From the NCBI GenBank assembly GCA_039630085.1, contig JBCNVM010000001.1, forward strand, positions 202,037-266,036: 64,000 nucleotides of DNA, written 5' to 3'. A program made the position numbers and the translations under genes. Shown one piece after another: positions 30,624 through 37,810 of this stretch; positions within the stretch are counted from its first letter, which is position 1, and every line of letters starts with the position of its first letter. Origin of the DNA: Candidatus Caldarchaeales archaeon. GTDB taxonomy: Archaea > Thermoproteota > Nitrososphaeria_A > Caldarchaeales > Calditenuaceae. The notes under the pieces are model-generated. The model was not told where the DNA came from. It did not search any database and saw only the letters and a list, made by a program, of their open reading frames with translations.

Positions 30624-33020
30624 TCAGAGGAGTTTCGCGGAGAACCCGCTCCTCCAGAGCGCGAGGAGGTGGAGGTTCCCGACGTTGACGTTCCTGAGGT
30701 GCCTCTTCGCAGCCCTGTAGCACTCCCAGACCTGCCTCTCCGGCGTGACGGGGACGTCGTTCATTTTGAAGTCCGGGTGGAAGACCAAGAGGCTGTACGG
30801 TATCTCCGGGTCCAAGGAGGCGATGAACCTCGCGATCTGGTCGACCTCGCGCTCGTTGACGTACTGGGGGACGAGGAGCGTCGTGGCTCCCAGCACGGGC
30901 ACGTCCCTCCTCCTCTCGTAGAACTCGTCGTAGACGAGCTCGAAGTTCCTCAGGATCTCCTCGTTGTCCATCCCGGTCAGCGCTACGTGGACGGACTTTG
31001 TGAAGGCCTTCAGGTCGAACTTCACGTTCCCTCCCGAGGTCAGCGAGAGCTCCGCGGCCCTCCTCACCAGCGCAGGGTTCCCGTCGCCGTTCCACTCCCA
31101 GCAGATCCTCACGATCCTTCCCTCGCCCTTCTCCTCAAGGACCGTCCTAGAGGCGTTGACCGCGAAGGGGAGCTGGGGCTCGGCCGATCCGCCGAACCAG
31201 CACCAGCACGTGATCCTCTCGTTCCTGAGCGTGACCTCCACCAGCTCCCTGGTCGTGATCCTCTTCCCCCTCGAGAGGGCCTTGTGGGTCCAGTTCTGGC
31301 AATTCTTCACTGCAATGCAGTTGGCGATGTAGGAATGGTCTTCGCAATCAACCTCTATGTTGTAGACGTATCCTGAATAAGGCCGTCTCTCAACGCTCTC
31401 AATTCGCCAAGAGATGTAATTGGCGGCACCGATTCCTGAGCCCGCACCACTGCTCATGCGCGAGTCGAACGATCTCTCCTCGACCTTGATGACGTATAAT
31501 CTCGATCGGCCGACCCTCCCCGTTCCAGTTCTCTCGATGCGGGGCGGTACAGACGTGTATAGAGCTGGTTTCATTCCCAATCCGATCATCAACCAGAGAA
31601 TCTCAAAGGCCAAGCGCTTCGAGGACGTTGATGCGACGACGTATCCTCGAGTGGTGCGATCGTCCCCTTTCAAGTAAGCCCTCAAGAAAGATTTGACTAC
31701 GTTTGCTGGTGCTAGTAGAATCCGTGGCGGGACGTGCTTTTCACGTGGACCCTGTCCACAGAGTTCGCCGAACAGTGAAGCGAGCGTGGGTTCGTCGATC
31801 TCCACCGTTATGCTGGTCGCCCTCTCCACCACGGTGCACTTCACGCCGAAGATGCTCTCCAGAACGTCGACAGCCCTTCTGACTAAACCCCTCTCGCGAT
31901 GTCCGAACGAAATGACAAGCCTGTGGGCATGCGGTCCGTTACCGCCCCTCGTCACACGTCCCCTTGCGCAGTAAAGGCCTAAGATCTCTGCAAGTTCCTC
32001 GTTTAAGGTGATGAAGCGCGGAATGCAGCTCCTTTCCTCCCCCTTGGACCTCACCGTTCCGTCTTCCTCTACAGTCGTGCCCCCGGAGAGCCCGTTTCCT
32101 GCAGTCACGGCTATCTCAGCGGCCAGCTCCTCGGTCACCCTGACAGGCTCCCTGAGCTTCGCGGAGTGGCGAGCGAGCAGCTCTTCGACGTCGATTGCAT
32201 CGGCGGATTCGCCTCGCGGGCGCGGCGTTACTAGGTATGATCCGCTTCTGACCTCATCGGCCCTGACGGTCTTGACGGTTTGAGCGTCGGGGCCGTCCGA
32301 CACGAACAGGCGGTGAGACGGCGTGCACTCGAGAGGCGGACCGAGGGCCGGTTTCAACGCGATCAGCTCCCCCTCGTACCAGTGTCTGAATACCCGCAGG
32401 ACCCTCGCCCTTCTGCCCGTGTGCGTTATCGTGTAGACTGAAGCGGGATACGCCTCTTCGTGGTCGAGGAACGAGAGCTTGAGCGGGGCTTTGCGAAAGA
32501 GTTGAGAGATGGTCTTCATCCCCTCGTCGGTGAGCACGAGGACGTCGGGCGGCAGACAGAACTGGCAGTTCAGCGAGCACCCGTAGAAGAAGAGCGCGAG
32601 GATGTAGTAACCGACCTCGGGCCCCTCCCTCACCGCGAACTTCGGATACCCGCACCCTGTCCCCGCGGGGCAGAACCACGCGTTGCAGCAGTTGGTGACG
32701 TGGGGGTCGAGGTAGTAGTCCAGCAGGCCGAAGTCCGTCCCCGAGAGGCTCCACATCCTCCCGCCCCTGACGCCCCTTATCCCGCAATACCCGACCTCTC
32801 CGTCGGCCATGACGCACCTGGCCGCGCAGAGGTTGCAGGGCTTCCCTCCCGGAGACCTCGGAGGCTCGGGGGGCAGTCCGAACTCGGCCCTCGAAGCCCT
32901 GTGGCCCTCCATCGCCACCTTCAGGGCCGCCTCGGGCCTCTCGACCAAACACTCCCTGCAGACGCCGATCGCCCTCGAGGTCAGCGGCGACGCCGCGCCG
33001 CAGGTCGCGCACCTAGCCAT
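30624..33020 (-). CDS. PflA/AmrS-like radical SAM enzyme, intein-containing precursor (798 aa; predicted spliced product 379 aa)
   Basis: N-terminal Zn ribbon CATCG...CRECL. The cluster motif GCSLNCQF / CQNW is split by a 419-aa insert. The C-terminal half resembles activase-type radical SAM proteins. Confidence 0.85.
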   Translation of the reverse strand: MARCATCGAASPLTSRAIGVCRECLVERPEAALKVAMEGHRASRAEFGLPPEPPRSPGGKPCNLCAARCVMADGEVGYCGIRGVRGGRMWSLSGTDFGLLDYYLDPHVTNCCNAWFCPAGTGCGYPKFAVREGPEVGYYILALFFYGCSLNCQFCLPPDVLVLTDEGMKTISQLFRKAPLKLSFLDHEEAYPASVYTITHTGRRARVLRVFRHWYEGELIALKPALGPPLECTPSHRLFVSDGPDAQTVKTVRADEVRSGSYLVTPRPRGESADAIDVEELLARHSAKLREPVRVTEELAAEIAVTAGNGLSGGTTVEEDGTVRSKGEERSCIPRFITLNEELAEILGLYCARGRVTRGGNGPHAHRLVISFGHRERGLVRRAVDVLESIFGVKCTVVERATSITVEIDEPTLASLFGELCGQGPREKHVPPRILLAPANVVKSFLRAYLKGDDRTTRGYVVASTSSKRLAFEILWLMIGLGMKPALYTSVPPRIERTGTGRVGRSRLYVIKVEERSFDSRMSSGAGSGIGAANYISWRIESVERRPYSGYVYNIEVDCEDHSYIANCIAVKNCQNWTHKALSRGKRITTRELVEVTLRNERITCWCWFGGSAEPQLPFAVNASRTVLEEKGEGRIVRICWEWNGDGNPALVRRAAELSLTSGGNVKFDLKAFTKSVHVALTGMDNEEILRNFELVYDEFYERRRDVPVLGATTLLVPQYVNEREVDQIARFIASLDPEIPYSLLVFHPDFKMNDVPVTPERQVWECYRAAKRHLRNVNVGNLHLLALWRSGFSAKLL
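31302..32558 (-). mobile_element. Intein with LAGLIDADG homing-endonuclease domain (residues 155-573 of the radical SAM precursor)
   Basis: Cys1 (CLPPDVLVLTDEG), block B TPSH, LAGLIDADG-like EILGLYCARG and FLRAYLKGDD, block F YVYNIEVDCEDHSYIAN, block G CIAVKN followed by Cys+1. Excision restores CSLNCQFCQNW. GC is visibly lower. Confidence 0.8.
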
Positions 33021-36360: not shown

Positions 36361-36438
36361 CTTCGCCTCGACCGGCGGTAAAAAGGGCTACCGGGCTCCG
36401 AAGGACTAAGGCGCCCGCGAAGCTCGAGGGGGCGACGG

Positions 36439-36852
36439 TCACCGTCGGGATGCTCGGTCGCTGCGTCTCAAGTTTATTGACCACCCCCCTCGCTCCGCCG
36501 TCAGGACTCCCTCCTCCATGAGATCGCTCAGTCGTCTCCGAAGGTCTTCCCAGAATCCGTTATCGTACAGGACCACGCCGTCCTTCAAGGCGTCTAGAAC
36601 CAGAACGTTGAAGTCCTCGAACGTCTTCAACGTTTCGTCGACCGAGTAGACGAAAAGGTCGACGGGGCCCTCAGCATAGACGCTGTATTCCAGAATGCGG
36701 TCGATGATCCTTCGCCCGTTCCGTGAAACGACGATCAAAAGGGTCGAAGTCGCTGTAAGTAGTCCAGTCGTCCTTCACCATTTAGCCGAACAAAATGAGC
36801 GAAACTACCTTCTAAGCTTTTCACGCAGAATGTTGCGTACAGTGTTCTCCAG
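36439..36852 (-). pseudogene. Degraded nucleotidyltransferase (MNT) antitoxin gene of a HEPN-MNT pair
   Basis: The MNT pattern is spread over three frames: LENTVRNILREKLRR / VVSLILFG*MVKDDWTTYSDFD (TAA at the GS position) / LLIVVSRNGRR...PVDLFVYSVDE...VLYDNG. This implies two frameshifts plus one stop. Confidence 0.6.
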
Positions 36853-36855
36853 TTA

Positions 36856-37254
36856 TCAGCCATGGGCAAGCTTCGTAACTTCTCCGGCAAAAGCAACGAT
36901 TCTCTCCGCCCTCCGCAAGGCGTCTTCTGCATCGGTACTGTCGAACATATCGGATGGGGCCCCGCCGGGAAAAGCGTTGGGACAGCGGGGTGCGATGTAG
37001 TATCTGTTTAGAACGCGGGAATCGTCCTTCACCTCCTGCGAGACCGGAGTCAGTTTATCTACTTCGTTTACGAGCTCGACGAGGTCGTGGCCGATCCTCG
37101 GACGGCCGAGGTGTTCGAGGACCGCCTTCAAAGCCTTTTCAGCGGCCTGATGGCTCGCGAAACAGCTTCACGCGTGGTTGCCCGTATCGAGTAGGTCCTT
37201 CGCTGCCTTGAGGTCTGTCCTCGCCTGCCTCATCCAGTCGGCGGTCCTTCTCAC
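36856..37254 (-). pseudogene. HEPN-domain toxin gene interrupted by an in-frame TGA (37168-37170)
   Basis: Same-frame translation gives VRRTADWMRQARTDLKAAKDLLDTGNHA*SCFASHQAAEKALKAVLEHLG...LNRYYIAPRCPNAFPGG...AEDALRRAERIV. The TGA sits where HEPN proteins usually have an aromatic or Trp residue. Confidence 0.65.
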
Positions 37255-37687
37255 GTGCGTCCCGCGATGAAGAGTTTACTTAAGGTTGCTACGCTAGGTC
37301 ACTTAGTTCGTGCCGTCTCGGGTTCGCGATCTTTCCGGTTAGCTCGGTGTCGGCTGCCCCGACAGGCCGGAGAGACGCGTTCTTCCTCCCTGGCCCAAGC
37401 GGTTTCCGAAGGCGCAGTCACCGGTCGATAGGCGCCTCTCACCGGGCCTCAGCCTGTCTTCGTTCACGACGGTTCACGTGCTGCGTCCGCTGTTCCACCA
37501 CCCGAAGCCGGCTTCGGTGAAGACGCTGCGAAGTCTCATCCTCTCCGCTCTCCCTCCGGCGAGCTGGTCTCCGGGGACGACGGGGACCTCGACTTGCGGC
37601 GCTGACCGTTACGCGAGAACCGTCCAAGCGATGCCTGCGAGGGATCGATGGGTCTTCCTTAATCGAGGTCTTTAGGCACGCGTCGTA

Positions 37688-37781
37688 AGCCCCGGGCGGG
37701 ATTCGAACCCGCGACCACCGGCCACCTCCCGCGCGCCGTGCGGCTTACAAGGCCGGCGCTCTGCCGCTGAGCTACCGGGGC
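37688..37781 (-). tRNA. tRNA-Thr (anticodon UGU) with a 22-nt intron at the anticodon loop
   Basis: Hand-folded: acceptor GCCCCGG/CCGGGGC, D arm GCTC..GAGC, anticodon stem CCGGC/GCCGG with loop CTTGTAA, T arm GCGGG-TTCGAAT-CCCGC, discriminator U. Twenty-two extra nt lie between the loop and the 3' anticodon stem. No encoded CCA. Confidence 0.85.
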
Positions 37782-37810
37782 TCCCCTCGCGGCCTATGGT
37801 GCCCGGACTT

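Follow-up and report, generated by a model that had tools for sequence, protein, structure and literature searches.

In the 64-kb window analysed here, a stretch of 64,000 nucleotides from the genome of a Candidatus Caldarchaeales ('Aigarchaeota') archaeon (assembly GCA_039630085.1, contig JBCNVM010000001.1), the gene for a radical S-adenosylmethionine (SAM) enzyme is interrupted within the cysteine motif for its [4Fe-4S] cluster by an insert of 419 amino acids (aa), encoded on the minus strand at positions 31302..32558. This insert is a genuine intein of class-1 type carrying a nested LAGLIDADG domain with two motifs. Our overall reading, which we hold with high confidence, is that the intein was acquired horizontally at CX3CX2/C (the slash marking, here and below, the point of insertion), that its splicing residues are intact and that its endonuclease has most likely been lost. 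The 798-aa product of the interrupted gene is labelled in GenBank as 'hypothetical protein ABDH63_01305 [Candidatus Caldarchaeales archaeon]'; the coordinates of its parts are collected in table 1.

A precise insertion in the cluster motif

The insert starts with the residues CLPPDV, at residue 155 of the precursor, and ends with IAVKN, the last Asn being residue 573. It sits between CSLNCQF and CQNW, that is, exactly between cysteines 2 and 3 of the CX3CX2C motif, which as encoded is split 7 + 1 and is whole only without the intein. Deletion of the insert in silico produces ...YGCSLNCQFCQNWTHK..., with which a contiguous CX3CX2C (CSLNCQFC) is regained (...LFFYGCSLNCQFCQNWTHK...). The junction follows the pattern C-x3-C-x2-/C1...N/C+1, reading C152-Q-F/C155 on its N-terminal side in precursor numbering, and Cys574 of the precursor is at the same time the third cluster ligand and the +1 residue. 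A previous annotation of the window, made from its letters without database searches (hereafter the sequence-only reading), had given the same coordinates, the length of 419 aa, residues 155-573 and the restored motif CSLNCQFCQNW, all of which proved exact on re-translation. It had also claimed that the third ligand of the Fe-S cluster doubles as the +1 nucleophile of splicing, and this holds. Its further prediction, that an alignment with intein-less homologues would contain one gap of 419 aa at CQF/CQNW, is borne out by the comparisons that follow.

These comparisons used the 379-aa protein spliced in silico as the query, which retrieved 1918 homologues with an E-value of 1e-10 or less. None of the best 120 of the 1918 contains the insert, their lengths of 290-426 aa leaving no room for 419 aa. 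The best homologue, from Ca. Calditenuis / Nitrososphaerota, is 82% identical and exactly 379 aa long, and a partial homologue with 93% identity runs uninterrupted across the insertion site. Aligned with nine intein-less homologues, the precursor displays a single clean gap of 419 aa at CQF/CQNW; since homologues occur without the insert, it is not a conserved domain. The same picture emerges from orthologous loci drawn from one genome per GTDB species, the best 80 of which contain no intein. One of these loci, L080, was considered as an intein-bearing orthologue on account of a match of 3.2 kb and was rejected: it holds a complete gene plus a downstream duplicated fragment, and no intein.

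At the nucleotide level, the locus L002, from the Nitrososphaerota metagenome-assembled genome (MAG) SKYBB_hs_bin131, follows the window collinearly with 85-93% identity. The alignment of the two stops at window positions 32557/32558 and 31301/31302, i.e. at both intein junctions, and the DNA around the empty site of L002 (CTGAACTGCCAGTTC/TGCCAGAACTGGACC) is nearly identical to the flanks in the window. The intein is a precise presence/absence difference of 1257 bp between related genomes. Its presence in the window is not peculiar to a single assembly: A Logan assembly of run SRR28200751 includes a 10-kb contig, 99.94% identical, that encodes this 798-aa protein, and an NCBI Caldarchaeales MAG, which may share its sample with SRR28200751, has an identical one. 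Because two assemblies carry the 798-aa protein, an assembly artefact is very unlikely. A profile built from the intein family found no second intein in the window.

Base composition sets the intein apart from its host gene. Its GC content is 0.58, compared with 0.68 and 0.63 in the two exteins, and the difference widens at third codon positions (GC3), with 0.683 in the intein versus 0.916 and 0.942 in the exteins (Fisher p = 1.4e-19); nine other genes of the window range from 0.88 to 0.955. The sequence-only reading had described the endonuclease part as less GC-rich than the host gene. The dip is real and foreign-looking, but it extends over the entire intein rather than over the endonuclease part alone. 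On the basis of this low GC3 and of its absence from close relatives, the intein was acquired horizontally, and the low GC3 fits an arrival whose traces mutation bias has still to remove.

The identity of the insert is established by profiles, motifs and predicted fold. The Pfam model Intein_splicing scores 43.8 bits on the whole protein (43.8-46.4 over scans) against a cut-off of 35.8, while TIGR01445, for the N-terminal splicing region (residues 155-240), reaches 31.0 bits against 24.5, and TIGR01443, for the C-terminal splicing region (residues 551-574), 18.0 bits against 15.6. The comparison with hidden Markov models that had been proposed along with the sequence-only reading came out divided in this respect: The intein-splicing models lie above their curated cut-offs, but LAGLIDADG_3 falls under its own. 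All the features which that reading had enumerated, namely Cys1, TxxH, two LAGLIDADG helices, blocks F and G, the terminal Asn and Cys+1, were found. Hallmarks of class-1-type inteins are thus present in the form of Cys1, the T-x-x-H of block B, a terminal Asn followed by Cys+1 (...AVKN/CQNW) and the HINT fold; in block G the penultimate residue is Lys418 instead of His. A penultimate His is common in inteins, without being obligatory.

Among solved proteins, the nearest in sequence to the intein are the VMA inteins 7qsu, 7qst and 7qss, together with PI-PkoII (E ~1e-9). AlphaFold, run with 12 relatives, gave a model of the intein with a predicted local distance difference test (pLDDT) score of 85.8 and a predicted template modelling (pTM) score of 0.85. 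Its best match in the PDB is the TliVMA intein (E = 9e-25, template modelling (TM) score 0.71/0.80), and further top matches are PI-PkoII, PhoVMA, PI-PfuI and PI-SceI, all of which are intein homing endonucleases. The central domain (residues 182-360) resembles I-DmoI structures, with a TM score of about 0.7 on target; it has two LAGLIDADG helices in a pseudo-dimeric alpha-beta-beta-alpha-beta-beta-alpha fold and matches also the endonuclease domains of VMA inteins, PI-PkoII and PI-SceI. The nearest solved structures, therefore, are those of the archaeal VMA inteins (TliVMA 7qsu/7qss, PhoVMA 7qst), PI-PkoII (2cw7) and PI-PfuI (1dq3), with E about 1e-9 and TM scores of 0.6-0.8. They likewise consist of a HINT domain with a nested LAGLIDADG endonuclease, but differ in their hosts (V-ATPase subunit A, DNA polymerase, ribonucleotide reductase), lie at other insertion sites and have a fold-based identity of 13-20%.

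Table 1. Parts of the interrupted radical SAM gene and of its intein (positions in the window)
Feature	Position	Strand	Remarks
Precursor gene	30624..33020	-	798 aa + stop; radical SAM enzyme broken by the intein
N-extein, aa 1-154	32559..33020	-	CxxC...CxxC, Cys-rich CNLCAARC...C and NCCNAWFC, radical SAM strand beta1
CSLNCQF	32559..32579	-	cluster cysteines 1 and 2, at -7 and -3 from the splice site
Intein, 419 aa, precursor residues 155-573	31302..32558	-	missing from all close orthologues
Intein block A (CLPPDVLVLTDEG)	32520..32558	-	contains the Cys1 nucleophile
Intein block B (ECTPSHRLF; T79-P-S-H82)	32304..32330	-	T79 and H82 invariant in 22/22 relatives aligned
Linker + LAGLIDADG endonuclease domain, intein residues ~121-380	31419..32198	-	structure/sequence matches
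LAGLIDADG core, intein residues 182-360	31479..32015	-	structure/sequence matches
LAGLIDADG motif 1 (LAEILGLYCARGRV)	31953..31994	-	Arg199 at the acidic position
LAGLIDADG motif 2 (VKSFLRAYLKGDDR)	31656..31697	-	Asp299 retained; next Gly replaced by Asp
Intein block F (GYVYNIEVDCEDHSY)	31329..31373	-	N400 and H408 invariant in the intein family
Intein block G (IANCIAVKN)	31302..31328	-	penultimate Lys418, terminal Asn419
Cys+1 codon TGC	31299..31301	-	third [4Fe-4S] ligand of CX3CX2C and nucleophile of the splice junction
C-extein, aa 574-798 + stop	30624..31301	-	remainder of the radical SAM partial TIM barrel

A family of inteins at one site

When 1.84 billion cluster representatives were searched exhaustively with the intein by phmmer, 3188 matched at E <= 0.001. 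The best of them is P0121 (818 aa, 44% identity over the intein), a member of the window protein's own host family, with 52-57% identity in the exteins and an intein inserted at the same point. Among the 150 best of these 3188 matches, 36 align from residue 1 of the intein; 31 of the 36 are inserted directly after CX3CX2 and before Cys, and two more occupy CX3CX2/C behind a second intein, both counts holding among the matches listed. The curated NCBIfam models of the 'exception' kind include two of relevance here, NF045703 for the intein-containing tetraether lipid synthase Tes and NF038136 for the intein-containing Rv2578c family radical SAM protein. NF045703 aligns to the window intein together with the junction at its C-terminus (48.3 bits, query 532-579 to profile 568-616); since the cut-offs of the two models are 1700 and 700 and the scores far lower, the window protein is in neither family.

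The CX3CX2/C insertion site is, then, not new: It is the habitual home of a sizeable family of inteins distributed over several families of radical SAM enzymes. The allelic members (P0121-P0153, P0168, P0192, P0271-P0277; all metagenomic) share 26-44% intein identity with the window copy, are likewise composed of HINT and LAGLIDADG domains in 390-465 aa, possess the same C1, T79, H82, N400, H408 and N419, and mostly have a residue other than His in penultimate position. Where they differ is in the host. Most of their hosts, spliced in silico, are true AmmeMemoRadiSam proteins (TIGR04337 at 283-629 bits), NrdG/PflA-like or unclassified radical SAM proteins, or B12-binding HpnJ-like proteins, and P0121 alone shares the host family of the window protein. 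No description of this intein family was found in the literature searched, which left most subscription journals out of reach. What is novel locally is the host family, in which inteins are rare (one other example among the matches listed), the seemingly decayed endonuclease and the broad range of the intein family at this motif.

An unusual arrangement was observed in one relative, P0151 (946 aa), and in the fragment P0163: an AmmeMemoRadiSam enzyme with two inteins three residues apart in a single CX3CX2C. The layout of P0151 is CNWL / C...(mini-intein ~170 aa)...HN / CRY / C...(full-length intein, 405 aa)...AN / CQN, and cluster cysteines 2 and 3 each stand at +1 of an intein. Of the two inteins, the first, before the second cysteine, matches NF038136.

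A family alignment of 22 inteins allows the splicing and homing functions of the window copy to be considered separately. C1, T79, H82, N400, H408 and N419 are invariant across the alignment and all are present in the window copy. The penultimate residue varies (G6, S6, A4, K2, C2, H2), so that His is missing in 20 of the 22. Hence the Lys418 which the sequence-only reading had singled out in place of the usual His is indeed there, but it is not a peculiarity of this intein, being typical of the family. An Asn at intein position 400 (VYNxEV) is invariant in the same 22 sequences; we take this position to be position 4 of block F, where many inteins have Asp. The non-canonical C-terminal active site of the family may be worth biochemical study.

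The endonuclease presents a different situation. The acidic residues corresponding to those that end the LAGLIDADG motifs bind the catalytic metal ions in I-DmoI, PI-SceI and I-CreI. At the end of motif 1 (consensus LLGYYCAEG) Glu is found in 20 of the 22 inteins, whereas the window copy has Arg199 (LGLYCARG), the other exception being P0153 with Lys; in motif 2 Asp299 is kept, but the following position 300, Gly in 21 of the 22, is Asp in the window copy only (G300D). Moreover, a conserved segment of ~35 aa resembling a helix-turn-helix (HTH), with consensus ...SSREIG..G.HP.YVR.LRS..., which separates the N-terminal HINT lobe from the endonuclease core, is deleted in the window copy, and the stretch around the loss is poorly modelled (pLDDT <50 at residues 133-141 and 153-160). 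Nearly all allelic relatives retain both the motif-1 Glu and the HTH-like segment, while P0153 also lacks the latter. With Arg for the motif-1 Glu, Asp for the Gly that follows the motif-2 Asp and no HTH-like segment, the endonuclease of the window copy is probably inactive, or at most a nickase, with the splicing apparatus apparently intact. The description of the insert as a full-length LAGLIDADG intein in the sequence-only reading thus stands for the fold and for both motifs, but has to be amended with respect to the endonuclease, which looks degenerate (E199R, G300D and the lost HTH-like segment).

The host enzyme and its neighbourhood

Removal of the intein also clarifies the nature of the host protein. 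The Pfam model Radical_SAM (PF04055; cut-off 29.5) covers profile positions 14-166 with 34.3 bits in the unspliced form and 3-166 with 49.7 bits in the spliced form. The model of the spliced exteins (pLDDT 90.5) forms a partial TIM barrel, whose best match is the pyruvate formate-lyase activating enzyme (PFL-AE) of E. coli, 3c8f (TM 0.75 on target, 2.7 A). The loop that follows strand beta1 (residues 139-145) holds the cluster motif in this model, and the motif's cysteines, C148, C152 and C155 in spliced numbering, are invariant in 40 homologues. Membership of the AmmeMemoRadiSam family was considered and rejected, given that the spliced form scores 67.7 bits with TIGR04337 against a cut-off of 220; the host family is related to, but separate from, that family. 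No match to the Pfam models of AMMECR1 or Memo was present among the neighbouring genes called on the 10-kb contig (L001), and no conserved operon partner emerged, no neighbour being common to more than 19 of 81 loci. The host is an archaeal radical SAM enzyme, its confidently modelled fold resembling the PFL activase, and its gene neighbours do not predict its substrate.

The host family is widespread, with members in Nitrososphaerota, Bathyarchaeia, Archaeoglobi, Thermoprotei and Asgard archaea, which are annotated merely as 'radical SAM protein' or 'pyruvate formate lyase activating enzyme'. Its members have additional invariant cysteines within the N-terminal 125 residues, in segments of the form CxxC...CxxC, CNLCxxxC...C and NCCxAWFC. 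Weak matches of LC3 to the extein profile were dismissed as due to chance.

Elsewhere in the window, about 1.1 kb at 36414-37687 is missing from the syntenic locus L002 and adjoins a gene for tRNA-Thr(TGT). This segment contains an open reading frame (ORF) at 36856..37131(-) for a HEPN-domain protein (PF05168, 49 bits; GC3 0.65) and another at 36439..36738(-) of 99 aa, without a Pfam match (GC3 0.72), which may be the nucleotidyltransferase partner of the HEPN protein. The whole looks like a HEPN/MNT toxin-antitoxin islet gained beside the tRNA gene. The tRNA-Thr(TGT) gene itself (37687-37782, minus strand) is 96 nt long according to ARAGORN, and the Rfam tRNA model matches with all its 71 positions over 94 nt; the gene probably contains a tRNA intron of the archaeal kind, some 20 nt long.

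Splicing, homing and a possible redox gate

In the precursor, a domain of ~46 kDa lies within the [4Fe-4S]/SAM loop. Splicing would begin with an N-S acyl shift at Cys155 and go on by trans-thioesterification to Cys574 and cyclisation of Asn573 to a final S-N shift, joining ...CSLNCQF to CQNW... to give the 379-aa enzyme and a free intein of 419 aa. Since the domain occupies the cluster loop, the precursor would be unable to form a working [4Fe-4S]/SAM site, and we infer that the enzyme works only after splicing. The intein itself is now probably inherited vertically, splicing without homing.

This evidence needs to be weighed against other ways of reading the insert. If the intein were still mobile, an active homing endonuclease would cut the intein-less DNA that encodes CQF/CQN and the element would spread by gene conversion. 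An intact and confidently modelled two-motif LAGLIDADG fold would be in keeping with such activity, as would the retention of Asp299 in motif 2, a low GC3 suggestive of fairly recent arrival and an empty site with nearly identical DNA in close relatives; yet the Arg in place of an acidic residue that 20 of 22 relatives have as Glu (the lone other exception, P0153, being similarly devoid of the HTH-like segment), a G300D change found in this copy only and the deletion of ~35 aa of a conserved region, with poorly modelled surroundings, render continued mobility unlikely. The opposite situation, an insertion dead for splicing that leaves the host effectively a pseudogene or constitutes a permanent domain of 419 aa, appears highly improbable to us. 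The penultimate His is missing, splicing is deduced from residues, and no conserved operon partner hints at strong selection on the host gene; against this, however, C1, T79, H82, N400, H408, N419 and Cys+1 are all in place, the exteins are 82-93% identical to intein-less orthologues and have the high GC3 of the host, no orthologue examined has the insert as a conserved domain would require, and the absence of the penultimate His extends to 20 of the 22 aligned relatives. As to a chimera of assembly or binning, with foreign DNA placed inside the gene, the provenance of the sequence from a metagenome-assembled genome and the atypical composition of the insert could raise the suspicion, but an in-frame insertion at an exact codon boundary with all the hallmarks of inteins, recovered in the SRR28200751 contig and in the NCBI MAG (possibly of the same sample), makes it scarcely conceivable.

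Some considerations do weigh against the reading we favour, that of an acquired intein which is competent in splicing and has lost its endonuclease. Long ORFs are frequent by chance at 65% GC, so the intactness of the frame is weak evidence; LAGLIDADG_3 scores 18.0-20.7 bits, under its gathering score of 22.5; and competence in splicing is read from conserved residues only. The loss of the endonuclease rests on two substitutions and one deletion, and a nickase acting at one site, or activity with non-canonical residues, would be possible. In addition, the combination of Lys418 instead of His with Asn at the presumed position 4 of block F may render the C-terminal chemistry slow or conditional.

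A question that follows from the position of the intein is whether its splicing could respond to redox state. MoaA, likewise a radical SAM enzyme, has its CX3CX2C at the N-terminus. In Pyrococcus abyssi, the MoaA intein has a native disulfide linking Cys-3 to Cys1 that controls its activity and splicing, a redox trap that postpones maturation in an enzyme labile to oxygen (Callahan et al. 2011, as summarised in the reviews PMC3922620 and PMC10663303). In common with the window intein, it has a radical SAM host, a Cys at position -3 of the N-extein and Cys1 as its nucleophile, and, going by its description, the arrangement of Cys-3, two residues and then the intein would fit CX3CX2/C; the host differs, being MoaA versus a PFL-AE-like enzyme. 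The Cys-3 and Cys1 of a trap of this type are present in the window protein (C152-Q-F/C155). Because Cys-3, Cys1 and Cys+1 are adjacent, control of splicing by disulfide formation is plausible by analogy. It is speculative that a disulfide between Cys-3 and Cys1 or between Cys1 and Cys+1, or the binding of metal by the four junction cysteines, renders splicing dependent on redox state or on the availability of the cluster.

A regulatory intein of this sort, in which Cys-7, Cys-3, Cys1 and Cys+1 constitute a trap sensitive to redox or metal and both splicing and assembly of the radical SAM site occur only under reducing conditions, seems to us possible but doubtful. It would agree with the junction C-x3-C-x2-/C1...N/C+1, with the disulfide controlling the P. 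abyssi intein (PMC3922620, PMC10663303), with the maintenance of the intein despite the apparent decay of its endonuclease and with the absence of a penultimate His in the family, which might slow the cyclisation of Asn. On the other hand, the layout of the cysteines is imposed by the host motif and would be present with or without regulation, so that in itself it is no evidence of the latter, and nearly all orthologues are devoid of the intein, which is consequently not needed for the function of the enzyme. The broader proposition is that the four cysteines act as a gate for redox or Fe-S availability which, combined with the family-wide loss of the penultimate His, lets an oxygen-labile site be assembled only if conditions are reducing, and that the intein is kept in several radical SAM families, even past the decay of the endonuclease, for the post-translational control it affords and not just as a selfish element; a disulfide, or a premature ligation of metal or cluster, would then block the first steps of splicing. 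We regard this proposition as rather unlikely.

Whatever its regulation, the recognition of the intein turns a 'hypothetical protein' of GenBank into a conserved archaeal radical SAM enzyme. The four junction cysteines, the lack of a penultimate His and the seemingly dead endonuclease provide a compact test case from a thermophile that goes beyond the single published example of MoaA, and the window intein may offer a redox-gated intein for protein engineering. For the family as a whole, the position before the third Cys of CX3CX2C is a recurrent site of inteins, and in each such protein the loop for the cluster and SAM is interrupted until splicing.

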